In this document: piece after piece, positions 1,645-63,924 of the stretch
Position numbering within the stretch: the first letter of the stretch is position 1
Layout of the letters: each line of letters opens with the position of its first letter
Origin: an uncultured Actinomycetes bacterium
GTDB lineage: Bacteria > Actinomycetota > UBA4738 > HRBIN12
DNA: 64,000 nt
Direction: 5' to 3'
Assembly (NCBI GenBank): GCA_963704885.1
Contig: CAVPIB010000001.1
Span: 922,262-986,261, forward strand
Notes under the pieces: generated by a model
The model's database searches: none
Told to the model about the DNA's origin: nothing
Seen by the model: the letters and a program-made list of their open reading frames with translations, nothing else
Translations under genes and position numbers: made by a program

Positions 1645-4600
1645 TCACCTGCGGGCGGCTCGGCCACGACGATCTGCAGCGTGCCTCCGGAGGGGGCCTC
1701 TTGACCGGAGCCCGCCTCTTCGCCGTCGGCCGGAGGCGCAACAGGCGCCTCGCCACCTGGGCCGCCGTCGGGCAGGAAGACACGGAACGCCGATCCGCCG
1801 CCGTCGCGGCTCTCGATCCGGGTCCAGCCGCCCTTGCATCTCCACGAACCGTTCCACGACGGGACTGAGCGATCCGTCAGACGAGGGCTCGGGGTCTTCG
1901 ACCGAGATCAGAGCGCCTCCATCGAGGTGAGCCAGGCGAACGGTGATGCCCTTGCCCGGGGGCGTGCGGTCGCCGCTCGCCCGCAGCAGGCCCGCCAAGA
2001 CCTGCTCCGCGCGCAGCGCGTCCACGGCCACGATCAGCGACTCGCTATCGATACGGACGTCGTGGTCGGTGCCGACGCCGGACTCCTCCACGACACGCTT
2101 GACCAACGCCTCCAGGTCGGTGCGCTTGATCGTCAGATCGACGACGCCGTGCGCCAACGCGTCGGCGTCGGCCAGGTCGGCCACCGTATGGCCCAGTCGG
2201 CGTGCCGCAGCGGTCAGCTGCTTGATCAACTGTGCCTGCTCCTTGGAGTCCTTCTTGAACTTCATGATCTGCGTGAGGCCCAGGATGTGGGAGAGCGTCT
2301 TGTTCGCGTCGAGCGACAGCTCCTTGGTGAACGGTGAGGCAGCGCGGCGATCCTCGAGAGGCTCGCCGGCTTCGGCATCAGCTCCGGCAGCGGCCGCCGG
2401 TTCCGACGAGGTCTGCAGGTCGTGCAGCGCCTTCTCCATCTGGAGGTGTCGCAGCTCGGCCTCGACCTCTTCCAGTCGCACGATCGTCTCCGCGAACTGC
2501 CGCTCAGCGGAGTGCGCGCGCTCTTCGACCTCGATGAGCTTCTCGGTCTGGCTGGCCAGACGCTCCTGGCTCGCTCGCAGCACCTGCTCCGTGTCCGGGT
2601 CCGGCAGGGTCTGAGCGGCAGCGGCGGCCAGCTCGGCGGCGTGTCGGGCCTCCGACTCGGCCACCGTGCGGGACAACTCATCACGTTCGACGGTGATGCG
2701 CCCCAGGTCCCCGGTCGCTTGGGCGGCCTCCTCGCGCGCGGTTCGGAGTTCTTGCTCGACGCGGTCGGCCCGCTCGGTCAGCTCCACGCCGCGACCGAGC
2801 TCTGTTTGGATCTCCGCGTTGGCAGCAGCCAGCTCCAGGCGGATCTCCTCGCGTTCGCGTGCCGCGAGCTCCTGCTCGCGCTCCGCCTGTTCCCGCAGAC
2901 GGCTCGCGTCCGCCAGCTCTCGCTGGAGGGTTTCGATCTCGGTCCGCGAACGCATCAGCTCTTCGTTCGCCTTCGCGACCTGTTCGTTCCGCGACGAACC
3001 GTGTTGGGTGGCGGCTGCGATCTCGTCGCGCGAGGCCTGCAGGTCCGCGAGCGCCTTCTCGAGTTGCGATCGCGTCTCGCGCAGCTCGACGTTCGCGCTG
3101 TCGGAGGCCGCCGTCACCTCGGCGATCCGGCGAGTCAGCTCTTCATCGCGCTGGCTCAACCGCAGCTCGAGCGAGGATGCCTGTTGCGCCATCTCCTCCT
3201 GAAGCGTGGCCTCGCGCTCGGCCAGACGATGCTGGAGCTCGGCCTCGCGCTCGGCCGCCTCGGCCGTGAGCGTCGCTGCACTTTGTGCTGCCTCCGCCGT
3301 CAGCGCGGCTTCGCGATTCGCGGCTTCCTTGGCGAGCGCTTCTTCGCGCTCGGCCAGCTGGCGCTTCGCCTGCGTTTCCATCTCCACGATCTGCGTCTGG
3401 AACTCCTCGCGGGTCCGACGCACCTGTTCCTCTAGATCGGCCTCGCGCTCCACCAGGTCCGCGCGGTGCGACGCCTTCACGCTGTCGAGCTCCGCACGGG
3501 TCGCCCGGAGCTCCTCGCCCAAGACAGTCGCCTTCTGTTCCTCGGCGCGGAGCACGCGCATCTCGTTGCGCACGTCCTCCAGCTCGGTGTTGGCTCGTGC
3601 CAGCTCTGCCTGTGCCGATTCCAAGGACTCCCGCGTGTGCAGCGCTTCGACGTGAGCGGCGTCCAGATCCTCGTGCATCTCCTGCGCGCGCGCGGCCTGG
3701 GACTTGAGCGTGTCGAGCTCCCGGCGGGTCACGGAGAGCTCGGTGTGAGCCCCCTCGAGCTCGGCCCGCAGGCCGATCGCCTCTTGTTCGACCTGGCGGG
3801 CCCGGTGGTCGAGCGCCGGATCCGGCCTGTTCTTGGCCTGCTCGGCGATGTGGCGAGCGAGCTTGTCACGCTCGGTCCCCATGGCCTTCAGCTGGCCCTC
3901 CAGAAGCCGGACGTGACCTTCGGCCTTCAGGAGGCGTCCCTCCAGCTCGGGATCGAGCGCGCCGGGCTGCGGCCGCTCGTGCACCGACTTCTGCGTGACA
4001 TGCAACTGCTCCAGGGTCTTGCGGTACTGCTCCTGGATCACGGAAAGGCGTTGCTCGGCCGTCTCGGCCCGTTCCTCCGCCTTGCGTCGCGCGTCGCCCT
4101 CTTCGCGCAGGCCGGGGGACGGCAGCTCGATCGGACGCTGCACCGGAGGCATGGCCGCAGCCGCCGCGGCGGCTCGGGCGCTCGAGGGGACGAAGTTGGC
4201 CATAGCCACCGCCGAGGCGGAGAGGCGCATCACCTTGTACAGGAAGACGAACGCGACGACGGCACTGATAGCCATGAAGATGGCGGCGAACTGCCAGGGC
4301 CGGCCGGCCGCGGCGATGGGGCCGTCGGGTCGCGCGAGTTGGACGGCGGCCGCGATGGGCGCGTCCGACCGAAGATGCAGTGGCACGAGCACGGAGAAGG
4401 AGCCGTCGCGCTGGTCCCAGGACACGGTGCCGCGCGTTGTGGCGTCGGTGACGGCACTTCGAGCTTCATCTGGCCGTTGTCCGATGAGTGCCCGGTCCGT
4501 GGCGTAGACGATGGTGCCGTCCGTCGACCAGATGGCGACATCGTCGTAGGGCGTGGGGTCCAACACGACCGGCGTGATCTTGACCGTGATCTGGTCGGCC

Positions 4601-4818
4601 TCCGTGGAGCTCGCCGTGGAGTTCACGTCGGACGGCGACAGTACGAGTGGCAGGGAGTTCTCGACGATGGAGCGCGCCTGGTCAACCGCGTTCGTCTTCG
4701 CCTGGTTGATGGCATTAACGCTCAGCAGGATCGAGGCGATCGCGCCCACGGCTAGGAGCGCTGCCAATACAAGCAGCATCGTCCGAGCGATGCGATAAAC
4801 GCTCCTCGTGCCGGCCAT
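1645..4818 (-). CDS. Membrane-anchored coiled-coil protein with degenerate histidine-kinase-like C-terminal module
   Basis: 1057-aa ORF. N-terminal TM helix (MLLVLAALLAVGAIASILL), a roughly 150-aa extracytoplasmic segment, then a second TM (FAAIFMAISAVVAFVFLY). This is followed by about 650 aa of E/R/A/L/Q-rich heptad-like coiled coil. Next comes a DHp-like segment (ELSLDANKTLSHILGLTQIM) with Leu where the phospho-acceptor His is expected. An HATPase-like N-box (VLAGLLRAS) has both conserved Asn replaced and no G2 box. The Arg-rich last roughly 60 aa may be GC-driven read-through. Confidence 0.6.
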   Translation of the reverse strand: MAGTRSVYRIARTMLLVLAALLAVGAIASILLSVNAINQAKTNAVDQARSIVENSLPLVLSPSDVNSTASSTEADQITVKITPVVLDPTPYDDVAIWSTDGTIVYATDRALIGQRPDEARSAVTDATTRGTVSWDQRDGSFSVLVPLHLRSDAPIAAAVQLARPDGPIAAAGRPWQFAAIFMAISAVVAFVFLYKVMRLSASAVAMANFVPSSARAAAAAAAMPPVQRPIELPSPGLREEGDARRKAEERAETAEQRLSVIQEQYRKTLEQLHVTQKSVHERPQPGALDPELEGRLLKAEGHVRLLEGQLKAMGTERDKLARHIAEQAKNRPDPALDHRARQVEQEAIGLRAELEGAHTELSVTRRELDTLKSQAARAQEMHEDLDAAHVEALHTRESLESAQAELARANTELEDVRNEMRVLRAEEQKATVLGEELRATRAELDSVKASHRADLVEREADLEEQVRRTREEFQTQIVEMETQAKRQLAEREEALAKEAANREAALTAEAAQSAATLTAEAAEREAELQHRLAEREATLQEEMAQQASSLELRLSQRDEELTRRIAEVTAASDSANVELRETRSQLEKALADLQASRDEIAAATQHGSSRNEQVAKANEELMRSRTEIETLQRELADASRLREQAEREQELAAREREEIRLELAAANAEIQTELGRGVELTERADRVEQELRTAREEAAQATGDLGRITVERDELSRTVAESEARHAAELAAAAAQTLPDPDTEQVLRASQERLASQTEKLIEVEERAHSAERQFAETIVRLEEVEAELRHLQMEKALHDLQTSSEPAAAAGADAEAGEPLEDRRAASPFTKELSLDANKTLSHILGLTQIMKFKKDSKEQAQLIKQLTAAARRLGHTVADLADADALAHGVVDLTIKRTDLEALVKRVVEESGVGTDHDVRIDSESLIVAVDALRAEQVLAGLLRASGDRTPPGKGITVRLAHLDGGALISVEDPEPSSDGSLSPVVERFVEMQGRLDPDREPRRRRIGVPCLPARRRPRWRGACCASGRRRRGGLRSRGPLRRHAADRRGRAARR

Positions 4819-4985
4819 CGTTCCCCTTGCGACGTATGGACCCAGCTCAGGTATCGGCTCGCTTAGGGGGGAGCCGTAGTCGGTCAGAGGTGGGATATGG
4901 TCGGAGCCAGGTAGGTCCTAGGGTGTACCCCGCCCAGGGCTCGGCGGGCGCCGAAGGTCGCGGAAGGCCTCGGACGTCGCCGGGG

Positions 4986-7523
4986 CTACGCCGCCGGGCC
5001 GGCTCCCGAGCGGACGATCGTGTCGCCGGTGACCTCGTGCTTGTCCAAGACGATCAGGTCTTCGATCGCCTCGCGCATCTCCGCCACGTGACTCACCAGC
5101 ACGACCAAGCGCCGATCGTCGGCGGAGACCAGGCGGCCGATGCCCTCCATGGCGCGGTCCAGATGATCGGGATCGAGGCTGCCGAACCCCTCATCCAGGA
5201 AGAAGGAATCTAGGCGTCCGCCGCCGCGCGCGACCATCTCCGCCAGCGCGAGCGCGAGTGCGAGGGAGGCCAGGAATGTCTCGCCACCCGAAAGGCTGTC
5301 GGCCTTCCGCTTGGTGCCGGCGGCGTTCAGGTCCAAGATCTCGAACCGGTCGTCGTCGGTGAACCTGTATGCGCTGTCGGTCAGCTGCTCGAAGTGTTCG
5401 CTTCCCAGCTCCGCCAGCTCCGAGCGCTCCTCCTCTAAGAGGAATCCCAGGAAGCGGGAGGGCTGCAGGTCGTCGGCCAGGCGCTTCGCGACCCCTCTGC
5501 GCGACTCGGTCTCCAAGACCCTTCGCTCCAGGTCGCTCGCCGCCGCGATCCGCTCTTCCAGCTCGGTCACCAGCGCAGCCGCCGTGCCGTGCGCCACCCC
5601 CGCGTCGGCCAGCGCCCGTCGGAAGTCGTCTGTGGGAGCCAGGCCGAGCGACTCGAGCAGCGCGCCGCGGGCCGCGATGCCCTCCTGCACCCGGACCGCG
5701 GCTTCGTCCCGCTCCTCTGACGATCGCTCGTGCCGGGCGACGATCGCCTCACGCACGTCGGCGAACGCGGTCTCGATCGTGGCCGGCTCGGCAGGTACGT
5801 CGCGATCCTCGTCGAGCCGGCCCCAGATGCCGGACAGTCGGTTCGCGAGCTTGGCGATCATCGCGCCGGCATCCTCGGCCCGCCGAACCGACTCCTCGTG
5901 GGCCGAACGCGCGCGCTCGACCGCGGTCCGCGCCTGGTCCACCGCGAGCTCCGCGGCGGCGAGCTCCGCCTGCCGGGCTTCGAAGAGCGAGCGGACGTCT
6001 CCCTCCTCGCCCAGCCACTCGACCAGCTGGCTCTTGGTGGCGTCGAGCGCGGAGTCGGCCGCCGTCGTGGCCGCGGTGGCGCGCTCGAGGACGGCCTCCG
6101 CCCTGGCGATGCCGGTGCTCGCCTCGCCGACGGCTGTTCGCGCCGACGCGTCGTCGGCTGCGCACCGCTCCTTCTCGATTCGCGCGCGCGCCTCGTCCCG
6201 CTCGGCCTTGGCCAGGGCCTTCTCGGCGGCCGCGACCTTCGGGGCGGCCCCGGCCTTTGGGATCGTGTGCACGTCCTGTCTGCAGACGGGACAGGGCTCA
6301 CCGGCCTCGAGCGTCCCGCGGAGTTCGTGGGCCATCTCGGCATGCTTCGCGTCCATGAGGGAAACGCGCGCGGTCTCGACGACCTGGAGCACGGCGGTAA
6401 GCGCGCGATCGGCGGCGGCGAGAGCGTCGGTCGCCTCCACCGCAGAGGTCTCTCGCTCCTCGGCCAGGGACCGCTGGGTCGCGAGCTCCACGTCGGCGCG
6501 ATCGGCCTCGGCGCGCGCGGAACGCAGTTCGTCGATCTGGCGTTCGTGCGCTTGCACCAGGTGTTCGAACGAGCGGAACTGCTCGCGGTCTCCATGCCGA
6601 GAGGCCACGTCCGCCAGCTCGGCCTCCCGTTCCTTGCGGAGCTGCTCGACCTGTTCACGCGCGGCCTTCGCGTCCGCGACGCGCGCTTCAGCGTCACGCG
6701 CGGCAGCGATCGCGATCTCCACGTCGGGTGCGGAGGGCAGTGCCGCCACGATCTCCTCAAGAGCAGCGATCCGCGCTGTCGCGGCCTCGGCGTCGCCCGC
6801 CGCCGCGTCCCGCTCCTTCTCCAGGCGCTCGATCTCGGGTCCGGCCTTGTCCAGGGCCGCCAACCGAGCCTGCGAGGCCCCGGCTGTCGCCCTCGCCTGA
6901 TCCAGCCTGCCCCGGGCCTCGGAGACACGCTCGCGTTCCTTCTCGAAAGAGGCCAGCTCCATCTCCACGCGGTCCAGCCGGGACTTCGCCACGCGCAGGG
7001 CGTCGTCGAGCCGTTCGAACCCGAACACGCCCTTCAGAACAGCGTCGCGCTGGGCGGGCGTCGCCTTCAGGAACTCCGCGAAGCGATTCTGCGCCAACAG
7101 CACCGAACGGCAGAACGTCTTGAAGTCCATCCCCAGGAGCTGCTCGATACGCGCGTTCATATCGCGTTCGAGGGTCACGGTCTCCACGATGTCCGCGTCC
7201 GGCTCGTCGGCGGCCAGCAGCTCGAGCTGGTGACCCGACGCACCCTTTCGGCGGAGCGAGCGGACCGCTCGCCACACCTGTCCGTTCACCTGGAACCGCA
7301 GCTCCACGTGCGACTGGTCCGCGAGCTGGTGGATCAGCGTCTTGGTGGCGCCCTCCACCTGTGGCGTCTTGCCGTACAGCGCGAACGAGATCGCGTCGAG
7401 GATCGAGGACTTGCCCGAGCCGATCGGGCCGACGATCCCCACCAGTCGCCGATCGCGCCAGTCGAACGTGGCACGGCCGCGGTAGGAACGGAAGCCCTCA
7501 ACGGTCAGCTCAAGCGGTCGCAT
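4986..7523 (-). CDS. sbcC: SbcC/Rad50-family double-strand-break repair ATPase
   Basis: 845 aa. N-terminal Walker A (GPIGSGKSSILDAISFALYG), a long central coiled coil with a CxxC zinc hook (GEPCPVCRQDV), and a C-terminal signature plus Walker B (SLSGGETFLASLALALALAE...FFLDEGFGSLD). It overlaps the sbcD stop by 14 nt, consistent with an operon. Confidence 0.85.
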   Translation of the reverse strand: MRPLELTVEGFRSYRGRATFDWRDRRLVGIVGPIGSGKSSILDAISFALYGKTPQVEGATKTLIHQLADQSHVELRFQVNGQVWRAVRSLRRKGASGHQLELLAADEPDADIVETVTLERDMNARIEQLLGMDFKTFCRSVLLAQNRFAEFLKATPAQRDAVLKGVFGFERLDDALRVAKSRLDRVEMELASFEKERERVSEARGRLDQARATAGASQARLAALDKAGPEIERLEKERDAAAGDAEAATARIAALEEIVAALPSAPDVEIAIAAARDAEARVADAKAAREQVEQLRKEREAELADVASRHGDREQFRSFEHLVQAHERQIDELRSARAEADRADVELATQRSLAEERETSAVEATDALAAADRALTAVLQVVETARVSLMDAKHAEMAHELRGTLEAGEPCPVCRQDVHTIPKAGAAPKVAAAEKALAKAERDEARARIEKERCAADDASARTAVGEASTGIARAEAVLERATAATTAADSALDATKSQLVEWLGEEGDVRSLFEARQAELAAAELAVDQARTAVERARSAHEESVRRAEDAGAMIAKLANRLSGIWGRLDEDRDVPAEPATIETAFADVREAIVARHERSSEERDEAAVRVQEGIAARGALLESLGLAPTDDFRRALADAGVAHGTAAALVTELEERIAAASDLERRVLETESRRGVAKRLADDLQPSRFLGFLLEEERSELAELGSEHFEQLTDSAYRFTDDDRFEILDLNAAGTKRKADSLSGGETFLASLALALALAEMVARGGGRLDSFFLDEGFGSLDPDHLDRAMEGIGRLVSADDRRLVVLVSHVAEMREAIEDLIVLDKHEVTGDTIVRSGAGPAA

Positions 7524-8676
7524 CGGCCTCCTCCAGCACGTCGCGAAAGAGTGCGAGCAGTTCGTCCGGCGCTTCTTCTTCGTGCTCGCGACGGAAGTAC
7601 TCGGCGTAGAGGTCCTCCCACGAGCGGTGGCCCTTCGCCAGCCGAGCGCGCTGGGCGCCGGCGGGACGCTGGGCCCTCACGTTCACCAGGAACCCGAACG
7701 CCTGGTGAGCGCGCTCGGAGAGCGACACGTCGGTGCCGCTGGCCTTCACGGTCAGATCCAGGAACGCGTCGGCCAGCTCCTCGGCCCGCGCCTCGATCGC
7801 GTCCCACGTGTCGGTCACGCGGACGAGACGCCGGCCGCCGGTGATCGGAACCGTCTCGGCCACGGCCAGCCGGCCGGGCTCGGCATCTACGATCACGACC
7901 CGCTTGTGCTCGCCCGCCTCGCCGAAGTCGAGTGCCAGCAGCGAGCCGGCGTACTCGGCCGGGACGGGCGTGCCGGGGACCGTCTGCGGCGCGTGGATAT
8001 GGCCCATCGCCACGTACTGCGGGCCGGGCGGTATCGCCTGCGCCGTGGCGGCGTAGGCATCGCCCATGTGGAGTTCCCGCTCGCCGCGCGCACCGTCGCG
8101 CCCCACGCGCACACCGTTAACCAGGAAGTGGGCCACCAGGATCGGGACCAGGTCGGCGCCGGCGAGTTCCACGAGCGCCTGGTTGTAACGGCCGGTGATC
8201 GCCGCCACCCGGTCCGCGTAGCCGCGGTACCACTCGCCGGCGTCCTTCATGAAGTCCACGACCTTCCCCTCCCGCAGGAACGGGAAACAGGCCACTACCG
8301 CGGGTAGGCCGCCGAGCTGGTCCGGGCCGATCACCCCCCCCTGATCCGGGCGCTTGATGCCGCCCACCAGGTGGACGCCCTGAGGACCGAGCAGCGGCGC
8401 GAGCGCCTCGAAGAGATCGGGGGAGTCGTGGTTGCCGGCCACCGCGATCACCGGTCGGCGCTCGGCGAGGCGCCGGAGCGTCTGCAGGCCGAGAGCAAGC
8501 GCGTCCATCTGCGGGATCGGCCGGTCCCAGACGTCGCCCGAGACGATCACGAGGTCGACGGCGCGTTCGTCGGCGATCCGTTCGACCTCCGCCAGGACGT
8601 CGCGGAACTCGTCCATGCGGTCGTGGCGGCCGAGCCGTTTGCCGATGTGCCAGTCCGATGTATGGAGGATCCGCAT
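7510..8676 (-). CDS. sbcD: SbcD/Mre11-family nuclease
   Basis: 388 aa. N-terminal calcineurin-like phosphoesterase motifs (MRILHTSDWHIGK ... VIVSGDVWDR ... AVAGNHD ... GHIHAPQ) typical of SbcD. Confidence 0.9.
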   Translation of the reverse strand: MRILHTSDWHIGKRLGRHDRMDEFRDVLAEVERIADERAVDLVIVSGDVWDRPIPQMDALALGLQTLRRLAERRPVIAVAGNHDSPDLFEALAPLLGPQGVHLVGGIKRPDQGGVIGPDQLGGLPAVVACFPFLREGKVVDFMKDAGEWYRGYADRVAAITGRYNQALVELAGADLVPILVAHFLVNGVRVGRDGARGERELHMGDAYAATAQAIPPGPQYVAMGHIHAPQTVPGTPVPAEYAGSLLALDFGEAGEHKRVVIVDAEPGRLAVAETVPITGGRRLVRVTDTWDAIEARAEELADAFLDLTVKASGTDVSLSERAHQAFGFLVNVRAQRPAGAQRARLAKGHRSWEDLYAEYFRREHEEEAPDELLALFRDVLEEADATA

Positions 8677-8699
8677 GTTCCGGGAGGAGGCGTGCCGGG

Positions 8700-10436
8700 C
8701 TAGAGGCCCGCGAACGGGTCGCCGTCGGCGTCGGTCGCCACTTCCTCCTTCCTTGTGGCCCAGGGCGGGAAGGGGAACGTCACGACGAGCGGCACCGGGA
8801 TGGCCGGCTGCGACACGACCATGGTGCCGGGCTTGAGCAGGCGCGCCCTCGCGCGTGTAGACGGCAGCATCCAGCCGTATTCAGCGCGCTCGGCCTCGGC
8901 GGCGTCCAGGCGTCCGCTCACGCGGATCGCGGCATTCTCCAGGACCTCTTGCGCGACCCGCGAGGCCGTCTGCTGCGCGCCGACGAGCAGCACGCCCAGC
9001 GACCGTCCGCGTTGCGCGATGTCGACGAGCATGTCCTTCAAGGGCCCGGTGCCTTCGCGGGGCGCGTACTTGTTGAGCTCATCGAGCACGAGCACCGAAA
9101 GGGGCAGCCGCTGTCCCGACTCCTCCTTCTCGCGGAACGTCTCGTTCAGGAGCGCGCCGACCACGAACCGCTGCGCCTGGTCGTGCAGCGACTGGATCGC
9201 CACGACCGTGACGCTCGCCTTCGAACGATCGATGCGGCGGCTCTCCCCGGCCTTCACCAGCTGGCCCATGCGCGCGGCGCCGGCGTGGAGTCGCCGCATG
9301 AACGCCGAGACGGTTCCGCCCATCACCCGGCCGCTCCATGCCCAGTCCGGCTCGGAGCCGTCAAGCGGCTCCAGGAACTCGCCGAGCGCGTCGACCAGCG
9401 AGGGGATGTCCGTCACCGTTCGCTCACCAGGTTGCGCCTTGACCTGCTGGCCGCGCCAGTTGCCGTCAGGCGCGTCGCGCGGATCGCGGAGCACGACCGC
9501 GCCCGGCATCCCTGCCACATCGACCGCGAAGCGTTTCAGCTGGGCCTGCACGCGTTCGCGGATGAACGGGATCTGGTTGCGCTGGTCGTTCGCATCGGTC
9601 AGTAGGAACTGCAGCAGCTCCTCGTCCACGAACTCGCGCGGCGTCCAGCTGAAGACGTCCACGCCCTCTTGGCGACCGCCCGTGTCGGGGACCACGACGT
9701 CGCCCGAGCGCGGGCGGGGCGGCGCCCAGAACCTGACCGAGGGGAACGGCCCGGGCTCCACGCCGAGCTTGGCCCAGCCGGCCGCGGCGTCCTCGTCGAA
9801 GAACCGGTTCGGCTTGTCCATCCAAAGGAGGTCTTCGCCCTTCACGTTGAAGACGAGCACGCGCAGGTTCGCGGCGCCCTCGCCCAGCAAGGCCGGGTTC
9901 CCGGTGAGCATCCTCAGGAAGAACAACGCGAACGACGTCTTGGTCGCCACGCCGCTGATCCCGCTGATCGACATGTGCCCGCCCTTACGCCCATCGAAGA
10001 AGTCCAGGTCCACGCTCACCGGCTCGCCGTCACGCCCGATGCCGATCGGCAGCGGCCGGCCCATCTCGTCCAGGTAGAGCGCCTTCGCGCGCTCGTCGCC
10101 GGTCGCGCGCTGCACGACCTCGCCTGGATCGGGCGAGACCCACACCTCCGGGTCCACACGTGTGACTGCGACGCGCGCGGAGCGGACCTTGGCCGCCGGC
10201 ATGATCCCGAGCTCGGCGACGCGGTGGGTGTCGGACTCGTACGAGGCTCCTTCGTAGACCGCCTCGGCCTCGGTGACCACGCCGTAGGTCCGGATCTCGC
10301 CCGCCTTGGGCACCTGCGTTCGGACGACCACCAGATCGTCCAGCTGGAGGAAGTCGTCGTCGTCCAGGACCACGCGGAACTCGGCCGTGGAGGCGTGCTC
10401 GGAGCCCAGGACGCGGCCGACGCCGTCGCCGGTCAC
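8700..10436 (-). CDS. herA: HerA-like (DUF87/COG0433) ATPase
   Basis: 578 aa. The N-terminal roughly 110 aa resemble a HerA HAS-barrel. The central P-loop-like region is GISGVATKTSFALFF, a non-canonical Walker A. Walker B is VLVLDELNKYAP, followed by an arginine-finger-like QRGRSLGVLLVGAQQ. The stop is 24 nt upstream of the sbcD start. Confidence 0.7.
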   Translation of the reverse strand: MTGDGVGRVLGSEHASTAEFRVVLDDDDFLQLDDLVVVRTQVPKAGEIRTYGVVTEAEAVYEGASYESDTHRVAELGIMPAAKVRSARVAVTRVDPEVWVSPDPGEVVQRATGDERAKALYLDEMGRPLPIGIGRDGEPVSVDLDFFDGRKGGHMSISGISGVATKTSFALFFLRMLTGNPALLGEGAANLRVLVFNVKGEDLLWMDKPNRFFDEDAAAGWAKLGVEPGPFPSVRFWAPPRPRSGDVVVPDTGGRQEGVDVFSWTPREFVDEELLQFLLTDANDQRNQIPFIRERVQAQLKRFAVDVAGMPGAVVLRDPRDAPDGNWRGQQVKAQPGERTVTDIPSLVDALGEFLEPLDGSEPDWAWSGRVMGGTVSAFMRRLHAGAARMGQLVKAGESRRIDRSKASVTVVAIQSLHDQAQRFVVGALLNETFREKEESGQRLPLSVLVLDELNKYAPREGTGPLKDMLVDIAQRGRSLGVLLVGAQQTASRVAQEVLENAAIRVSGRLDAAEAERAEYGWMLPSTRARARLLKPGTMVVSQPAIPVPLVVTFPFPPWATRKEEVATDADGDPFAGL

Positions 10437-10658
10437 GAGGTCTCTGCGGCCGACGCTGTCATGACGCGTATCGTAGCCGCGCCTTCCGATGGCGGGGGAG
10501 TTTCGAGCCGGCGGGAGCTTGGTCGCCTCAGCCGCCGAGGCTCGCGCATCTTCGCTCGTCAGACAACCATGGGTCGGATGGCCCCACTTGATAGGGCCGG
10601 CGAACCCTCACGGACGCCTTCGGGTATCCCTACGTTGGGTTCCGGGAGGTGTCTAGAG

Positions 10659-10862
10659 ATGAAAGCAAGCGTTGGAGATCGGATAGTCGTTCGCGGGCAC
10701 CACGTTGGCGAATCCGAGCGGGACGGCGAGATCCTGGAGGTGCGCGGCCCTGATGGCGGCCCTCCCTACCTCGTCAAGTGGTCGGCGGACGGACATGTCG
10801 GGTTCGTGTTCCCAGGTCCAGACGTGACGATCGAGCACTTCGAGAGCCACCTGTCCCGGTGA
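10659..10862 (+). CDS. DUF1918 domain small protein
   Basis: 67 aa (MKASVGDRIVVRGHHVGESERDGEILEVRGPDGGPPYLVKWSADGHVGFVFPGPDV...). An RBS (gggaggtg) lies 8 nt upstream of the ATG. The sequence matches the conserved actinobacterial DUF1918 pattern. Confidence 0.7.
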   Translation: MKASVGDRIVVRGHHVGESERDGEILEVRGPDGGPPYLVKWSADGHVGFVFPGPDVTIEHFESHLSR

Positions 10863-10879
10863 TCGCGGTTACGCCGTGG

Positions 10880-11809
10880 CTATGAGGCTTCCGGCTGGCT
10901 GACGGCTTGCCGCAGGGCCCGGTAGACGAGGCCGGGGTCGCCCATGCGATGTCGGAGTTGGCGTTCGAGTGCACCGATGGGCACCAGGTTCTGCGGCGCG
11001 CGGGGATCCATGTGGGCCTCCGAGGCGACGACGGGCAGCACCGCGGCCGTCCGGTCGGCGATCACGCGCACCTCCTCCTTGGGGAGCTGGCCCGACGCCT
11101 CGCAGCGGACGATGCCGGTCCATGAATGGCCGCCTTGGAGCATGGCCAGACGCACGTACCAGGAGTAGCGCCGGTATCCCGCGATCGTGAACAGCGGCGT
11201 GCGCTGCCCGGGAGCGAGTTCGGCGATCACGGCGTTCTGCTCGGGTGGCAGGTAGGTGACGCGATGGCTCTTGATGTAGCCGACGACCGGCTTGGCCTCC
11301 AGCTCGTTCAGCGGCCCGTCGGCGATCACGAACGCATCGGCCGCGAGCACTGAGGCCGCCTCGCCTTCGGCCCGCCTCATCCGGGTGTGGAGCTCCTTCA
11401 CCAGGTGGCCGGGGTCATCCGATGCCGTCGTGGTCGTCAGGTAAGGCGGCTCTAGGTCGACCACAGGCAGCTGCTCGGGTCGACCGCCCGCCAGAACGGC
11501 CCACCGCTCGACACGAACGTTCACGACTTCGGACCAGCGCTCCTCGCGGTCCCAGAGCGCCGCGCCCACGGCGAACGTTCCGCAGATCCCCGGGATCGGG
11601 CCGGCGATCGGATCGTCCAGGAGCAGGCGCGCATCGACGCGCCTCACACCATCAACGAACGCGATCCGGTTCGTGCCGTCGTCGGCGCCCTCGAGCGGCT
11701 CCCAATCCGTTACCTCGACCGTCGCGTCGATCGTCCCCTCGGCCGGGGCGAGCTGCTCGTCGAGCTCGAGGGGCGCGCCGTACTCGGGAGCCCATCCCTC
11801 GACGAACAT
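10880..11809 (-). CDS. Hypothetical protein, candidate NurA-like nuclease
   Basis: 309 aa with no recognizable signal peptide. It has an RIAFVDGV motif near residue 50 that resembles NurA motif I ([IV]DGS). It sits just upstream, on the same strand, of herA-sbcD-sbcC. The assignment rests on context and is weak. Confidence 0.35.
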   Translation of the reverse strand: MFVEGWAPEYGAPLELDEQLAPAEGTIDATVEVTDWEPLEGADDGTNRIAFVDGVRRVDARLLLDDPIAGPIPGICGTFAVGAALWDREERWSEVVNVRVERWAVLAGGRPEQLPVVDLEPPYLTTTTASDDPGHLVKELHTRMRRAEGEAASVLAADAFVIADGPLNELEAKPVVGYIKSHRVTYLPPEQNAVIAELAPGQRTPLFTIAGYRRYSWYVRLAMLQGGHSWTGIVRCEASGQLPKEEVRVIADRTAAVLPVVASEAHMDPRAPQNLVPIGALERQLRHRMGDPGLVYRALRQAVSQPEAS

Positions 11810-11816
11810 CCGCGCC

Positions 11817-12410
11817 TCACCAGCCGAGGACGTCTTCGTCTCCCTCGAGCTGCACGCCTAGACCGTCGGCGAGTCGGTTCACGTAGGCGAAGTAGCAGGT
11901 GATCATGTTCGCATCCAGGATCTCGCGGTCCGTCAGACCCGCCCCTCGCATCGGAGCCAGGTCGGACTCGACCATGTTCCACGGCTCACGCGTGAGCTTG
12001 TCCGCGTAGTCGCAGATCGCCCGCTCGCGCGGTGTCAGCGGTGCCGTCCGATGATCTGCCTCGAGCGCCGCCGCGAATCCCGGCCGGCGCCGATCCGTCA
12101 TGCGGGCCAGACCGGCCGCGTGATGGCGTAGTCAGTAGTGGCACGCGTTCACCGCAGAGACGACGACGCCGATCATCTCCCGTTCGGGCCGGCTGAGATC
12201 GCCCTTGCCGTGCATCAGCGTCCGATAGAGGCGGGAGTGATCGCGCATCGTCTCCGGATGGAGACTGTGGATGGCCAGGATGTGATCCACGGTGCCGGTC
12301 TTGGCCGTTCGCATCTCGTCGTACAGCTCGGCGAGCTCCCCTTCGGCTTCCGCCTCGGGGATCACTTCGATCCAGGCCGGCCGATGCTCGGGCGAGGGGT
12401 CCTCGTTCAT
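11817..12410 (-). CDS. AhpD-like / carboxymuconolactone-decarboxylase-family peroxidase-related protein with in-frame TGA (candidate selenocysteine, CxxU)
   Basis: Track ORFs 12132..12527 (ending ...AVNACHY*) and 11817..12101 (MTDRRRPGF...) are in the same frame. They are separated only by a TGA and 10 sense codons (LRHHAAGLAR). The TGA sits where the second Cys of the AhpD CxxCxxxH motif is expected, giving CHY-U-LRHH. The likely real start is the ATG at about 12410 (MNEDPSPEHRPAWIEV...), which gives about 197 aa, the size of TIGR01926-type proteins. Confidence 0.6.
12094..12131 (-). promoter_or_regulatory. SECIS-like stem-loop downstream of the in-frame UGA
   Basis: The mRNA reads UGA-CUACGCCAUCAC-GCGGCC-GGUCU-GGCC(C)GC-AUGACGG. 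A 6-bp stem with a one-nucleotide bulge starts 12 nt after the UGA. The apical loop is GGUCU, as in the E. coli fdhF SECIS loop. An imperfect lower stem extends the structure (CAUCAC/AUGACGG). Confidence 0.5.
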
Positions 12411-12554
12411 CGGGCGCCATCCTCGCACACCCTTCTTCAGACGGGCTCTTCGATCGACGAGACCACCTTCCAACCCGACGACCCTTCGAAGACGAGGACT
12501 GAGATCCTGGTTGCGCTCGGACAGCAATGGGCATCCCCTTCCGCGAATACGGCT

Positions 12555-44592: not shown

Positions 44593-45324
44593 TCACGGCT
44601 CGATCGTGCCCGTTCGGAACAGATCCTCACCGGCGGAGCGGACCAGGTCGCGGGCTCGACCCGGAGGCGCTTCCCCTCGATCCACTCCCCGGAGCAAGGC
44701 GGCGGGAACGCCCGCGGACTTGCCCATAACCAAGCCGCTCGCCGCCGCGACCTCGTCCGCGAGCGCCACCACGGTCACCTCCAGCTCGCGCCCGAGCCGA
44801 TCCACGTCACCGCGGAGATCCATGATCGCCGGCATCCCCGCGCACCCGATCGCCACGTTGACCAAGCCGTTGCGCCACGGCCGGCCGAACGTGTCCGTCA
44901 CCACTACGCCGAGGCCCTTGACCCCCAGCCGAGCCTCGAGCGCGGAACGGATAGCCTCCGCGGAGGCGTCGGGATCTTCGGGCAGGAGCGACACGAACCC
45001 GTCCTCTACGTTCGAGGCGTCCACGCCGGCGTTGGCACAGATGAAGCCGTGCCGTGTCTCGGCGATCAAGAGGTCCCCGCGTCGCGCCACCACGCGGACG
45101 GTCTCGCGCTCGACCCACGCCGCCCGGCCGATGCCCTCGTCCGACACCACCCGGCCTTCGGCCTTCGATACGACCTTCTGGGTCACGGCCAGGACATCGC
45201 CCCTACGAGCGCCCAGCGTTCGCAACGGCTCGGCGAGCATCGAAGCCAGGTCGTCCCCTGCGGCGATCTCGGGAAGGCCCTCGACGGGCCAGATCTGGAT
45301 CGTCACGACGCCAGCTCGATGCAC
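44593..45324 (-). CDS. cofE: Coenzyme F420-0:L-glutamate ligase (single-domain CofE type)
   Basis: 243 aa ([12 protein letters not shown]...[12 protein letters not shown]...[14 protein letters not shown]). It has no C-terminal nitroreductase-like FbiB domain. Confidence 0.85.
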
Positions 45325-46253
45325 GCGCGGGCGACCGCGGCCGCCACGCTATCGTCGCGCATCACGGTGTCGACAGCCGCCACCCGGACTCCGACCTCGT
45401 CTCGGATCCTCCCTGCGAGTCCTCGATCGCGCTCGTCGATCACCCAACCGCTCAACAGATCCGAGTAGGCCTTGGCGGCTCCGATCGACGAGACCTCCAT
45501 ACCGGCGACCGGCATCAGCTTGTCGGCCATCCCGGCGAGCGGCGCTCCGCCGACGATCGGGGAGACGCCCACGACGGGGCCCATCCGAGCTGCGACCGCT
45601 TGACGCAACCCCGGCAGAGCTAGGATCGGTCCGATCGAGACCACTGGGTTCGACGGACAGATCAGGAGGACGTCGCTCCGGCTGATCGCATCCAGGATCC
45701 CGGGCGCCGGACGAGCTTGCTCGATGCCCACCAAACGGACCGCCTTCACGTGATCGGCGGCGTGGCGCTTCACCCAGTACTCCTGGAAGTGGAGGTCCAG
45801 GGCCTCACCACGTCCGTCGACGGCATCGATGCGGGTGGTAACCGGGTCGTCGGTCATGGGACGGACATCGACCTCTAGGCCGAAGAGCTCCGAGCGGATC
45901 GACACGGTGGCTTGCGACAAGGTCCTGCCTTCCCGCAGGAGTCGGGTGCGGAGGATATGTGTAGCGAGGTCGCGGTCGCCCAGGTTGAACCACGCGTCCA
46001 CCGCGCCCGTTGCGCGCATCGCCTCCATCGCGTGGAACGTTTCGCCGGCACGACCCCAGCCGCGCTCGCGGTCCATGAGGTCCGCCAACCAGTAGCAGAC
46101 CGAGTCGACGTCCGGTGAGACGTGCAATCCGTGGACGACGATGTCGTCGCCGGTGTTGACCACGACCATCGCCGTCTGGCCGGGGAACGCGAGCTGGACG
46201 CCACGGAGGAACTTCCCCGCCCCGATCCCACCAGCCAGCGCGACGATCTCCAT
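45303..46253 (-). CDS. cofD: 2-phospho-L-lactate transferase
   Basis: About 317 aa from the [18 protein letters not shown] start. CofD-family conserved blocks ([17 protein letters not shown]). Confidence 0.85.
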
Positions 46254-46281
46254 GTCCCGATAGCGTAGTAGTCTCGCCGAG

Positions 46282-48768
46282 ATGCCTGAGGCGACCCCGC
46301 AGTCCCTCCGTCGGGCGCTCGCCCGCGCCGGTTCGGGCAAGGCCATCTCTCTCCCCGAGGCCGAGGTTCTGCTTCACGCGCGCGGCGATGGTTTGCAGCA
46401 ACTCATGAGGGTCTCGTCCGGGCTGCGCCAGGTCGGGCACGCTCGAACGATCACGTACTCGCGCAAGGTGTTCGTGCCGCTGACGATGCTCTGCCGCGAT
46501 CACTGTCACTACTGCACGTTCGCGAAACCTCCGGCCAAGCTCGATCGCCCATTCCTGTCACCAGACGAGGTCGTGGCGATCGCCGAGGCCGGTCGGAGGA
46601 TGGGCTGCAAGGAAGCGCTCTTCACGCTCGGCGATCGCCCCGAGGAGCGGTACCCCGTCGCGCGCGAATGGCTCGCGGAGCGCGGATACGCGAGCACGCT
46701 CGAGTACCTGCGAGCCGTGGCCATCCAGGTTATCGAGGCCACCGGCCTGCTCCCGCACCTGAACCCGGGCGTGATGTCGTACGAGGAACTCGCCCGGCTG
46801 AAGCAGGTGAGCGCGTCCATGGGTCTCATGCTCGAGTCCTCTTCCGACAGACTGACAGAGCGCGGCGGTCCGCACTTCGGCTCGCCGGACAAGATGCCGG
46901 CCGTGCGTCTGCGAACGATCGAGGATGCAGGCCGCTTGGCGATCCCCTTCACCACGGGGATCCTCGTGGGCATCGGCGAGACGCATCGCGAGCGCGCCGA
47001 ATCGCTCTTCGCGATCAGCGGCCTTCATCGACGCTACCGCCACGTACAGGAGATCATCGTCCAGAACTTCCGCGCCAAGCCGGGTACGGCGATGCAGCAC
47101 GCCGCAGAGCCGGTGGATGAGGAGTTCCTGGCCGCTGTCGCGACCGCCCGCGTGATCTTCGGGCCATACATGAGTGTGCAGGCGCCCCCGAACCTGTCGG
47201 ACCCCGACCAGCAGCTTCGGCTACTGGACGCCGGGATCAACGATTGGGGAGGTGTCTCGCCGCTCACGCCCGACCACGTGAACCCCGAGAAGCCGTGGCC
47301 GACCTTGGAAGCGCTCTCCGCCACGACCGCCTCGCGCGACCTCACCCTTCGCGAACGTCTCACGATCTACCCGCGGTTCGCCGCCAGCCCTGACCCGTAC
47401 TTGACCTCTAAGATGCGGGCGCCCGTGAACGCTCTGCTCGGACCGGAGGGCCTGGCCGTCGAAGGTCAGGTCCCCGAGCCGACCCCATGGCAGGACCCCG
47501 ATGTCCGATGGAAGCCGCGCGGGATCTCGCTCATGTTCGCGAAGGCGGCCGATGCGGGCCTGCGGGAGGACGCGCTCGCCGTCTACGGGGACTTCGACGC
47601 CCTCCCCGTGACGCGCGCGTGGGGCTCGCATGAGGTACAGCCGGAAAGGCTGGATGCGGAGATCAAGCGAGCACTTGCCAAAGCGCAGGATCACCGGGCG
47701 ATCACGGACGACGATGCCCTCGCGCTCTTCCGCGCCGAAGGCCCGGCTCTGGACGCACTCTGCCGGGTCGCAGACGACCTGCGGGCCGAGGCGGTGGGCG
47801 ACGACGTCACCTACGTCATCAACAGGAACATCAATTTCACGAACGTCTGCTACGTGGGGTGTCGTTTCTGCGCGTTCGCGCAGCGAGAGATCGACGCCGA
47901 GTCCTACACGCTCACGCTGACCGAGGTGGCCGATCGCGCCGAAGAGGCGTGGGCCTGCGGTGCGAGCGAGGTGTGCATGCAAGGAGGGATCCACCCGGAC
48001 CTGCCGGGTACCTTCTACATGGACCTATTGGATGCCGTGAAGGCTCGCACCCCAGACATGCACATCCATGCCTTCAGCCCCATGGAGATCTTGAACGGTG
48101 CGACGCACCTGGGGATATCGTTCAGAGAGTTCCTGCAGGGGTGTCGCGATCACGGACTGGGGACGATCCCCGGCACGGCCGCCGAGATCTTGGATGACGA
48201 CGTTCGCTGGCTCTTGACGAAAGGGAAGCTCCCCGCGGATACATGGGAGGAGATCGTCCGCACCGCACATGATCTGGGGATCCGAAGTAGTTCGACCATC
48301 ATGTTCGGCCATGTCGACGCCCCTCCCCACTGGGTAGCTCATATCAGGCGGATCGGGAGGATCCAGGCCGACACCGGGGGGTTCACCGAGTTCGTCCCGC
48401 TGCCGTTCGTGCATCAGAACGCGCCGATCTACCTCGCCGGGAAGGCTCGCCCGGGTGCCACCTTCGAGGAGAACCTACGGATGCACGCACTGGCCCGCAT
48501 CCTTCTCGATGGGCTCATCCCCAACATCCAGGTGTCGTGGGTCAAGCTCGGCATCGACGCCTGCCAAGCCATCTTGCGATCGGGCGCGAACGACTTCGGT
48601 GGAACGCTCATGGAAGAGACGATCAGTCGCATGGCAGGCGCCGATCATGGGATCGCCATGATGCCGGATCAGTTCGACCGAGCGATCCGCGACATCGGGC
48701 GGGTGCCGGCGGTGCGGACGACTACCTACGATCGTGTCGTTCCTGCCGATAGTAGTCAATCAGCTTGA
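46282..48768 (+). CDS. fbiC: Bifunctional FO synthase (CofG/CofH fusion)
   Basis: 828 aa with two radical-SAM CxxxCxxC motifs (CRDHCHYCTF and CYVGCRFCAF). Confidence 0.9.
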   Translation: MPEATPQSLRRALARAGSGKAISLPEAEVLLHARGDGLQQLMRVSSGLRQVGHARTITYSRKVFVPLTMLCRDHCHYCTFAKPPAKLDRPFLSPDEVVAIAEAGRRMGCKEALFTLGDRPEERYPVAREWLAERGYASTLEYLRAVAIQVIEATGLLPHLNPGVMSYEELARLKQVSASMGLMLESSSDRLTERGGPHFGSPDKMPAVRLRTIEDAGRLAIPFTTGILVGIGETHRERAESLFAISGLHRRYRHVQEIIVQNFRAKPGTAMQHAAEPVDEEFLAAVATARVIFGPYMSVQAPPNLSDPDQQLRLLDAGINDWGGVSPLTPDHVNPEKPWPTLEALSATTASRDLTLRERLTIYPRFAASPDPYLTSKMRAPVNALLGPEGLAVEGQVPEPTPWQDPDVRWKPRGISLMFAKAADAGLREDALAVYGDFDALPVTRAWGSHEVQPERLDAEIKRALAKAQDHRAITDDDALALFRAEGPALDALCRVADDLRAEAVGDDVTYVINRNINFTNVCYVGCRFCAFAQREIDAESYTLTLTEVADRAEEAWACGASEVCMQGGIHPDLPGTFYMDLLDAVKARTPDMHIHAFSPMEILNGATHLGISFREFLQGCRDHGLGTIPGTAAEILDDDVRWLLTKGKLPADTWEEIVRTAHDLGIRSSSTIMFGHVDAPPHWVAHIRRIGRIQADTGGFTEFVPLPFVHQNAPIYLAGKARPGATFEENLRMHALARILLDGLIPNIQVSWVKLGIDACQAILRSGANDFGGTLMEETISRMAGADHGIAMMPDQFDRAIRDIGRVPAVRTTTYDRVVPADSSQSA

Positions 48769-61400: not shown

Positions 61401-62135
61401 GTGGTGGCCAGGGCGCTCGACGTGGTCTTCCCGCCTCGATGCGCCGGCTGCGCGCGGGGCGCCTGGCCGTTCTGTCGACCCTGCAACTCCGCGCTCGTGC
61501 CGCTGTTGCCGCCGTGGTGTGGGCGATGCGGCCGTCCGCGTCCGGATGAAGTGGAGAGCTGTCGCGAGTGCCCACCCTCGCCTCTGGCGGGGGCCCGTGC
61601 CCCGTTCCTGTACGCCGGTCCCGCTCGCGCGGCGATCATCCGCCTGAAGTTCTCCGGATGGCGGAGCGTGGCAGCTGCGCTGGCCGACGCGATGGTCGCC
61701 GTCGGGCCGCCACCGGCCGACGCCGTCACCTGGGTTCCGCTCGCGCGTCGGCGACTGGCCGAACGCGGGTACGACCAGGCTCGAGCCCTCGCAGTGGCGG
61801 TTGGCGCGCGACTCCACCTGCCGGTCGTTCGCCTCGCGCGCCGAGTGCTTGCCACAGACCCGCAGGCCATGCGCACCGGAGGGCAACGACGGGTTGCCAT
61901 GAAGGGGGCCTTCCGACCCACGCGCCTCCCGGCGCCCGAGACGGTGCTCCTGATCGACGACGTGCTCACCACCGGCGCCACCGCTGCCGCTTGCGCTGAA
62001 GCCATGGTCGGAGCGGGTGCGCGCCGGGTGACGTTGCTTACCGCGGCGCGCGCGTTCGCCCGTCCCGAGGGGTCTGGCTATACTCGGCTGGGCTCTCAAC
62101 CGGGTCTGTGGTTGCCCGGGGATCTTCCCCGGTAG
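61401..62135 (+). CDS. comF: ComF-family protein (phosphoribosyltransferase domain)
   Basis: 244 aa. N-terminal Cys-rich zinc-finger-like segment (PPRCAGC...CGRCGRP...CREC) and a C-terminal PRTase motif (VLLIDDVLTTGAT). Confidence 0.8.
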   Translation: MVARALDVVFPPRCAGCARGAWPFCRPCNSALVPLLPPWCGRCGRPRPDEVESCRECPPSPLAGARAPFLYAGPARAAIIRLKFSGWRSVAAALADAMVAVGPPPADAVTWVPLARRRLAERGYDQARALAVAVGARLHLPVVRLARRVLATDPQAMRTGGQRRVAMKGAFRPTRLPAPETVLLIDDVLTTGATAAACAEAMVGAGARRVTLLTAARAFARPEGSGYTRLGSQPGLWLPGDLPR

Positions 62136-62361
62136 TCGACGCCAGCCGCGGGCGAAACGACCCACGTAAGGCGACCATTGGTCGGCCGAGCATGGCGCGG
62201 TTTAGATGTAAGTCCTGCCTCGGGCCGGGTGACCGGACCGGGAGAAGGTGCTAAGCCGTTCCTTCGGGGGCGGCGACCCCCTCCGCAGGCGGGTGTGGGG
62301 GCAAAGACCAGGTCAGCCGGGAGGGAGCCCACCCGGAGCGAAAGGGGGCGAAGCTACAGGG

Positions 62362-62757
62362 ATGGATCTGACCTTCACGGGCCGCGGGCTCGCGCTCACC
62401 GACGAGGTTCGGGAGATCGCCGAGCACAAGCTCTCGCACCTCGCCCGGCTAGAGCCGCGGACGACGCGGGTGGATCTGGAGTTCATCGCCGAACATCACC
62501 CGAGGATCGACGGGACCACGCGCGTGGAGGCCGCACTCTTCGTGCCTCGCAAGACGTTCCGGGCCGAGGCCGAGGCCGAGGACGTCCCGACCGCGCTCGA
62601 CCGGGTAGCTGAGCGCCTCGACCGGCAGATCAGGGATTACCACGGCCGCCGCAAGAAGCGGGCGGCCCGCAAGGATGCACTAGAATCCGCGCGCCCGAGG
62701 CCCCAGACTGCCGATACAACGGGGGAGCAGACCGGAGAGGATCTGGGGGGACAGTGA
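62362..62757 (+). CDS. hpf: Ribosome hibernation promoting factor (short HPF/RaiA)
   Basis: 131 aa with RBS aaaggggg. MDLTFTGRGLALTDEVREIAEHKL...IDGTTRVEAALFV is the S30AE family pattern. Confidence 0.85.
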   Translation: MDLTFTGRGLALTDEVREIAEHKLSHLARLEPRTTRVDLEFIAEHHPRIDGTTRVEAALFVPRKTFRAEAEAEDVPTALDRVAERLDRQIRDYHGRRKKRAARKDALESARPRPQTADTTGEQTGEDLGGQ

Positions 62758-63465: not shown

Positions 63466-63924
63466 GTGACTGTGAGCGATCCCACGCTCGAAGCCGCACG
63501 CAGCATCGTGGACGAGTCGTTGGACGCGATGCGCGCCGCGATAACCGGAGCGTCGGCCGACGCATTGAACGGTCGCCCTGCCGGCGACGACTCGAACCCC
63601 ATCGCGGTGTTGGTCGTGCACGCGCTGAGCAGCACGCGCTGGTGGTTGAGCGTGGCCTTGGGTCAGCCGGTCCCCGAGCGGGACCGCCCGGCCGAGTTCC
63701 TCACGACGGTGGCTAGCGCCGATGAGCTGCTCGGATCGTTCGATCCGATCGCCGCCGACTGCCGGGCGTTGTTGAGCACCGATGTTGCGTTCGACCCAGG
63801 AGCGATCCGCGAGGACCCACGCGACGGCGACAAGGTGACGGCGGCGTGGGCGCTCATCCACGCGGTGGAGCACCTACGCGAGCACGTCGGTCACGCGGAG
63901 CTCACCCGTCAGCTGCTCGGATGA
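63466..63924 (+). CDS. DinB/YfiT-like family protein
   Basis: 152 aa. Spaced His residues (VVHAL...HAVEHLREHVGH) fit the DinB_2 metal-binding four-helix-bundle pattern. Confidence 0.55.
   Translation: MTVSDPTLEAARSIVDESLDAMRAAITGASADALNGRPAGDDSNPIAVLVVHALSSTRWWLSVALGQPVPERDRPAEFLTTVASADELLGSFDPIAADCRALLSTDVAFDPGAIREDPRDGDKVTAAWALIHAVEHLREHVGHAELTRQLLG

Follow-up and report, generated by a model that had tools for sequence, protein, structure and literature searches.

AhpD-like proteins (COG2128) in which the second Cys of a CxxC motif is replaced by selenocysteine (Sec), giving CxxU, entered the literature in 2005, when 27 sequences from the Sargasso Sea were described as a new selenoprotein family under the name 'AhpD-like protein' (PMC1088965). 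In the GOS selenoproteome, 'AhpD-like 1' was the fourth most abundant selenoprotein family, with 299 sequences (PMC2398784), and Sec forms of COG2128 are also found in finished genomes, e.g. that of the clostridial Alkaliphilus metalliredigenes (PMC1794560). In the table of a 2026 review, the family appears as 'AhpD-like protein, TIGR01926, CxxU' (PMC13188914), and BSepDB holds a page for it (PMC13326102). The statement in an earlier, sequence-only reading of the present DNA (the first-pass annotation) that Sec forms of AhpD-like families have been reported is thus borne out (PMC1088965, PMC2398784, PMC13188914). As to function, a knockout of Deinococcus radiodurans DR1765 is H2O2-sensitive and the CxxC cysteines of this protein matter (PMC8945050); even in the Cys homologs, peroxidase/peroxiredoxin-reductase activity is only weakly supported (PMC3141380, PMC8945050).

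Here we describe a gene from an uncultured actinobacterium which, with a probability that we put at roughly 0.9, is a genuine Sec-encoding gene for an AhpD-like antioxidant enzyme. The gene is located on the minus strand of a 64-kb stretch of DNA (64,000 nucleotides), referred to here as the window. The list of open reading frames contains a 131-aa ORF at 12132–12527 (TTG start at 12527) and a 94-aa ORF at 11817–12101 (ATG start at 12101), which share one frame and are separated by a TGA at 12134–12132 and 10 sense codons (LRHHAAGLAR). That two same-frame ORFs of 131 and 94 aa are split in this way had been claimed in the first-pass annotation, and they were found as described. Translation around the TGA reads ...PEREMIGVVVSAVNACHY*LRHHAAGLARM..., whereby the motif AVNACHY-TGA-LRHHAAGL corresponds to C90-H-Y-U93-x-x-x-H97. 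Because the N termini of homologs lie about 10 residues before AWIEVIPE, the ATG at 12410 is likely to be the true start, with a product of 197 residues. No frameshifts or extra stops were found in the gene, and when the window was scanned for further same-frame coding pairs split by a TGA, this locus alone was returned. The features of the gene are as follows.

11817 to 12410, minus strand: predicted full-length AhpD-like (TIGR01926) selenoprotein gene, with ATG at 12410, 197 codons including Sec93, and terminal stop TGA at 11819–11817.
12420 to 12424, minus strand: possible ribosome-binding site GAGGA, 9 nt before the ATG at 12410, as judged from the sequence.
12177 to 12179, minus strand: Glu78 codon GAG, predicted proton-relay Glu, 12 residues before Cys90; the REM motif is invariant, and the spacing equals Glu118–Cys130 of MtAhpD and Glu36–Cys48 of PA0269 (PMC3141380).
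12141 to 12143, minus strand: Cys90 codon TGC, with which the CxxU redox motif begins; invariant in the alignment and, by spacing, the counterpart of MtAhpD Cys130 and PA0269 Cys48 (PMC3141380).
12132 to 12134, minus strand: in-frame UGA, codon 93, predicted Sec (CHYU); 83 of 88 loci have TGA here, and the site aligns with the second CxxC cysteine of solved structures.
12120 to 12122, minus strand: His97 codon CAC, predicted proton-relay His, 4 residues after Sec93; invariant, with spacing equal to Cys133–His137 of MtAhpD and Cys51–His55 of PA0269 (PMC3141380).

For profile searches, a Cys was put in at the TGA to give the readthrough protein. This protein scored 142.9 bits against TIGR01926 (NCBIfam 'peroxidase-related enzyme'; cutoff 81.8), residues 12–187 covering positions 1–174 of the 178 in the profile, and 44.4 bits against Pfam CMD (cutoff 23). 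Spanning TIGR01926 from end to end, it upholds the earlier proposal that both ORFs form one AhpD-like protein of about 197 aa. Homologs of known structure (3c1l, 6k40, 2pfx, 2oyo, and 2prr) aligned across both halves with E values from 1e-19 to 1e-27, the best being 3c1l, 6k40, and 2pfx (E ~1e-27), in which the TGA stood opposite the second Cys of CYYC, CVYC, and CFYC, respectively. An alignment of CMD/AhpD-like homologs had been suggested as a means of confirming that Cys or Sec aligns with the TGA; in the solved and the Cys-form relatives alike, the TGA fell on the second CxxC cysteine, which is invariant. In the ortholog alignment the positions of E78, C90, Y92, U93, and H97 were all invariant, with either Cys or Sec at 93. 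Against NF041238 (AhpD_rel_CFYUT) the protein reached 54.7 bits, below the cutoff of 175, and it gave no match to NF041047 ('distant AhpD homolog'); the search of solved homologs did not bring up MtAhpD at E < 0.01. Judged by sequence, the window gene is a predicted member of the TIGR01926/COG2128 CxxU family, and the locus adds one member to this catalogued family; neither the selenoprotein family nor its motif nor the decoding mechanism is new.

Orthologous loci were collected by a genome scan, which yielded six loci, and a metagenome scan, which yielded eighty, and counts were made over the window plus 87 loci. The search patterns did not include the TGA site itself, and the query set was Sec-type, which tilts the sample to the Sec clade. 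Within this sample of 88 phylogenetically non-independent loci, the codon at the site was TGA in 83 and TGC or TGT in 5, with no TAA or TAG, which places the TGA position far beyond chance. Represented among the loci are Actinomycetota, Deltaproteobacteria, and SAR324, along with metagenomes; the closest named relatives of the window are Actinomycetota MAGs with 81% and 70% identity. Cys forms include P0001 (CYYCLRHH), L007, L051, L069, L081, and L084. Full-length Cys forms are also present in the protein database, e.g. P0001 and P0003 (CAYCREHH), the former being the closest full-length database relative of the window protein, at 65% identity.

Given that one base separates TGA from TGC and that the family has Cys forms, it could be argued that the real codon is TGC or TGT (Cys) and that the TGA arose by an error in sequencing or assembly. 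The same TGA was, however, found in independent assemblies, namely L008 (89% identity) and the named MAGs L002 and L003, and in a Logan contig from run ERR12037370 an identical 94-aa downstream ORF is called as a gene of its own. Because L008, a separate metagenome contig, carries both the same TGA and the same hairpin (see below), such an error can be excluded with near certainty.

Many entries of the protein database with 60–77% identity are fragments that stop exactly at ...VNRCHY or start at xHHAAGL, and some entries of relatives carry W, G, or L at the UGA site. Such broken or substituted entries are typical marks of a miscalled UGA-Sec codon. Gene callers splitting the gene, with entries of relatives ending in ...CHY or starting at xHHAAGL, would also be expected if an AhpD-like gene had been killed by a nonsense mutation, leaving a 92-residue fragment or nothing functional, and the lack of Sec machinery in the 64-kb window could be read in the same way. 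Such a pseudogene is at odds with the recurrence of the same TGA in 83 of 88 loci from several phyla, never as TAA or TAG, with the absence of frameshifts and further stops, and with a hairpin at the right place that is specific to Sec forms. It is also at odds with the coding pattern beyond the TGA. Over the 104 codons that follow it, the window differed from L008 by 20 synonymous and 7 nonsynonymous codons, and from L002, downstream of the TGA, by 35 and 18, respectively. Since synonymous differences outnumber nonsynonymous ones in both comparisons, the downstream half is under purifying selection, with no pseudogene decay. The cross-phylum conservation of the TGA effectively refutes the pseudogene, to which we would assign very little probability.

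The ATG at 12101 in the window, 11 codons after the TGA, might alternatively mark a split gene, in which two polypeptides (residues 1–92 and 103–197) assemble into one AhpD-like fold. Met103, though, is not conserved, relatives having Leu or other residues at this point (RLTERT, RLTKRR); the 10 codons between TGA and ATG encode the invariant HH and the active-site His97, and the catalytic residue itself would be lost. Because this ATG is unconserved and the ten codons preceding it encode invariant active-site residues, a two-subunit gene is excluded for all practical purposes. A single protein translated through the UGA is the reading followed from here on.

Immediately downstream of the UGA, the window sequence can form a hairpin with the following parts.

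12102 to 12119, minus strand: core SECIS-like stem-loop GCGGCC-GGUCU-GGCC(C)GC, starting 12 nt past the UGA, with −7.8 kcal/mol for the pairing as drawn.
12109 to 12113, minus strand: apical loop GGUCU (Gly-Leu codons GGU CUG), with the loop starting 18 nt after the UGA.
12095 to 12126, minus strand: extended hairpin around the core, RNA positions 9–40 counted from the U of the UGA; −13.4 kcal/mol for the 40-nt fold and −14.5 kcal/mol for a slightly longer one.

The core stem-loop had been drawn in the first-pass annotation, and it is present with this pairing, 12 nt after the UGA (12119–12102). Constraints in use for bSECIS elements are an apical loop of 3–9 nt, an upper stem 4 bp or longer, a G among the first two loop positions, a distance of 16–37 nt from the UGA, and an MFE of −7.5 kcal/mol or lower (PMC13188914). 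The window hairpin satisfies these, with a 5-nt loop (GGUCU) that begins with GG, a spacing of 18 nt, and −7.7 to −14.5 kcal/mol. Shuffle z-scores for the 40 and 60 nt after the UGA were −0.77 and −1.11, neither of them significant; 13 of 152 other 27-nt windows around the gene folded as stably as the hairpin window, as did about 20% of its synonymous recodings, and in GC-rich relatives a loose bSECIS filter was passed by about 30% of control positions. An Rfam scan at gathering thresholds gave nothing at the locus, with raiA found elsewhere in the window. The hairpin of the window by itself is therefore weak evidence in a 68% GC genome. Folding of the region downstream of the UGA had been proposed as a check: the bSECIS constraints are respected, but the specificity of the filter is low and z is about −1. 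Likewise, of the earlier argument that a nonsense mutation or an error would not be expected to hit this very codon next to a SECIS-like fold, the part that concerns the TGA position stands (83 of 88 loci, no other stop), while the hairpin, taken alone, is unremarkable.

Support for a SECIS comes instead from the family, in the form of an energy minimum specific to Sec forms and a GGU codon bias. Across 78 distinct Sec-type loci, the mean 27-nt MFE reached its gene-wide minimum of −8.3 kcal/mol at +6 to +12 after the UGA, compared with about −4 kcal/mol elsewhere. No other part of the gene folds as stably as this hairpin, whose centre lies some 18 nt past the UGA; the five Cys-type loci gave −3.6 kcal/mol at the same place, with no hairpin signal. 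The bSECIS-model filter was passed by 60 of 82 Sec loci (the window included) and by 1 of 5 Cys loci, as well as by 20–30% of control positions. Where the loop codon encodes Gly, GGU was used in 47 of 78 Sec loci (60%), compared with 16% for the other Gly codons of the same genes (Fisher p about 2e-16, uncorrected for relatedness); this bias is synonymous-site selection for a GGU loop. In a synonymous recoding test of the loci, the mean z was −0.95, and 26% of loci fell in the 5% tail. Stems differed by lineage, being GCGGCC/GGCCGC in the actinobacterial clade and CGGAG/CUCCG, GGAGCA/UGCUCC, or GCGGAG/CUCCGC elsewhere. By inspection, the apex stays fixed on the same Gly-Leu codons across lineages while the stem register slides (i+j = 44, 46, 47, or 49). 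It is because of this sliding register that RNAalifold, run on a gapless alignment of 82 sequences, returned no single consensus structure.

The decoding machinery was then sought within reach of the gene. A Pfam scan of 54 window ORFs gave no SelA, SelB, or SelD, and tblastn with the E. coli SelA, SelB, and SelD sequences found no matches over 488 kb (window plus 87 loci). ARAGORN predicted no tRNA in the 64-kb window, and no tRNA-Sec in either the window or loci L001–L007. From the gene itself we infer that a full Sec machinery is encoded elsewhere in the genome of this uncultured actinobacterium, outside the 64-kb window. TGA ends 33 of the 44 predicted genes in the window, this gene included, and is thus an ordinary stop; a reassigned code, and with it a global reassignment of TGA, is ruled out on these grounds.

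That the Sec machinery is not among the genes of the 64-kb window would also suit readthrough of the UGA without selenium, whereby a near-cognate or specialised tRNA inserts Cys or Trp, e.g. in a lineage that has lost Sec synthesis and kept the gene. Cys and Sec forms do interchange in the family, with the 65%-identical P0001 being a Cys form. On the other hand, TGA is the main genuine stop in the window, and SelB makes use of the features seen here, namely a conserved hairpin, a loop biased to GGU, and a spacing of 18 nt. Loss of Sec decoding, moreover, is normally accompanied by a codon change to Cys or by loss of the gene (PMC1794560). We consider selenium-free readthrough improbable, although it is the alternative to which we give the most weight, and favour Sec insertion.

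Sec insertion at this locus would proceed as follows. During translation, the UGA at 12134–12132 would be decoded as Sec, with Sec-tRNA(Sec) brought by SelB, itself recruited by the hairpin 12 nt downstream, whose GGUCU loop lies 18 nt after the UGA; the ribosome would then continue to the true stop at 11819–11817. The predicted product is an AhpD-like thiol/selenol oxidoreductase with C90-H-Y-U93 as its redox centre, in which a proton relay of Glu78, Tyr92, and His97, together with water, may activate an exposed Sec93. Sec93 would attack a peroxide or the oxidised Cys of a partner peroxiredoxin; the resulting intermediate would be resolved by Cys90, giving a selenenylsulfide, which a cellular reductant would recycle. 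Sec93 is placed at the attacking position because in M. tuberculosis AhpD it is the second Cys (Cys133) that is exposed and attacks the partner, the first being partly buried (PMC6626918). The first-pass annotation, which had put the TGA at the resolving Cys of CxxCxxxH, is accordingly right as to the second Cys of CxxC, but by the M. tuberculosis model this residue is attacking and not resolving. For Burkholderia AhpD, it is the first Cys that carries more weight, and the assignment of attacking and resolving residues is for this reason not universal.

The window otherwise carries housekeeping and cell-wall genes of the kind usual in Actinomycetota, such as those for aconitase, CofE, CofD, and FbiC (F420), and glycosyltransferases; a mycothiol-S-transferase-like protein is also encoded. 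No ahpC neighbour was found in the window. A conserved operon was considered and rejected, as the downstream gene is common only to the 89%-identical relative L008. A gap of 8 nt separates the gene from a possible NurA-HerA-Mre11-Rad50-like cluster; on a more speculative note, peroxide defence could be co-expressed with DNA-break repair.

The immediate value of the assignment lies in annotation, in that without it the locus would be taken for a pseudogene or called in two pieces, and entries of relatives have already been mishandled at the UGA. The actinobacterial branch comprising the window, L001–L003, and L008–L011 could mark a GC-rich Actinomycetota lineage, with genes for F420 biosynthesis and mycothiol-transferase-like proteins, that keeps Sec decoding for peroxide defence. 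We offer this only tentatively and think it rather unlikely to hold as a whole; the GC-rich Actinomycetota of this branch are presumed to be aerobic. Because the SECIS apex, GGUCUG at 18 nt, equals that of fdhF, the gene of this branch might be decoded by unengineered E. coli SelB; a natural CxxU/CxxC pair would then be at hand for testing what selenium contributes to AhpD chemistry.

When compared with known systems, the gene is closest to the AhpD-like CxxU family, with which it shares the HMM family, Sec as the second residue of the CxxU motif, a SECIS hairpin just downstream, and widespread Cys homologs. No structural difference from this family was seen; the window copy resides in a 68% GC genome of Actinomycetota type, and the stem in its actinobacterial clade is GCGGCC/GGCCGC, as against the CGGAG/CUCCG common elsewhere in the family. 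The NF041238 and NF041047 selenoproteins are, like the window protein, CxxU proteins of the CMD/AhpD superfamily, although it is a member of neither group. Among solved structures, DR1765 of D. radiodurans (6k40), Mlr4105 (3c1l), 2pfx, 2oyo, and 2prr belong to the same fold family over the full length and share the REM...CxxC...H helix pair; they have Cys at both positions of the motif, whereas the window protein has a predicted Sec at the second.

The spacing of the relay residues Glu78/Cys90/Tyr92/Sec93/His97 is identical to that of Glu118/Cys130/His132/Cys133/His137 in MtAhpD (Rv2429) and of Glu36/Cys48/Tyr50/Cys51/His55 in P. aeruginosa PA0269 (PMC3141380). Overall identity to these two proteins is very low, and the window, as stated, is without an ahpC neighbour. 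For the decoding signal, the nearest comparison is E. coli fdhF, in which a hairpin likewise follows right after the UGA, at codon 140. The fdhF SECIS has a bulged U17 on the 5′ side, while the bulge in the window is a C on the 3′ arm, and the stem sequences of the two are unrelated. The apical loop, by contrast, is shared, as the first-pass annotation had recognised: in both genes GGUCUG, encoding Gly-Leu, lies exactly 18 nt after the UGA.

Comparison of the motif across the Sec-type and Cys-type loci (orthologous loci with TGA, or with TGC/TGT, at the codon 93 site) and the database relatives of the AhpD-like protein showed that Sec forms carry C-H-Y-U followed by xxHH nearly without exception, whereas most Cys forms carry C-[A/T/D]-Y-C. 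The His that follows the first Cys seems to go together with Sec.

It was also noted that Sec-type members of the family are subject to systematic errors in public protein predictions. Among the protein-database matches to the readthrough protein, fragmentary entries either end in ...CHY or begin with xHHAAGL, and in some full-length entries the UGA codon has been rendered as W, G or L, with one cluster of the latter containing 141 member sequences. The entries concerned are P0022, P0024, P0025, P0028, P0040, P0042, P0043, P0050, P0002 and P0092-P0115, and these mispredictions presumably result from gene calling under alternative codes.

Directly 3' of the selenoprotein gene, the genes at 1648-11809 (-) look like a NurA-HerA-Mre11-Rad50-type DNA-end-processing cluster:

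10880-11809, -, 309-aa ORF; sub-threshold NurA match only (E 0.018)
8703-10436, -, 578-aa ORF; weak HerA/mad8 matches
7513-8676, -, SbcD/Metallophos gene, part of the putative cluster
4989-7523, -, SbcC/Rad50-like ATPase gene, part of the putative cluster
1648-4818, -, 1057-aa ORF, possibly a coiled-coil protein; sole match SMC-like, weak and far sub-threshold (21 bits)

The 309-aa ORF begins 8 nt past the stop of the AhpD-like gene, and when the neighbourhoods of related loci were compared it was shared only with L008, an independent metagenome contig that is 89% identical.

Elsewhere in the window, genes consistent with an Actinomycetota host could be found:

44596-48765, F420 biosynthesis genes (cofE-like, cofD and fused fbiC)
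63466-63921, mycothiol-S-transferase/DinB-like gene

Stop codons of the 44 predicted genes were TGA (33) and TAG (11), with TAA at 0.

Separately, a ribosome hibernation factor gene was observed immediately 3' of a raiA motif RNA, for which a position 5' of this gene is the customary setting:

62095-62325, +, raiA motif RNA (Rfam RF03072, 141.9 bits, full length)
62248-62754, +, ribosome hibernation factor gene, longest ORF (PF02482, Pfam match from residue 42)

Downstream of the UGA, a strong synonymous codon bias was seen in the loop of the SECIS-like stem-loop:

12108-12113, -, hairpin-apex Gly-Leu codons (columns 22-27 of A2, the alignment of the region from the UGA onwards)

The apex Gly codon is GGU in 47 of the 78 loci having Gly there, against a background GGU frequency of 16%, and GGC is almost missing. 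This bias yields a GGUCU/GGUCUC loop that resembles the one in E. coli fdhF, which lies at an equal distance of 18 nt from its UGA.
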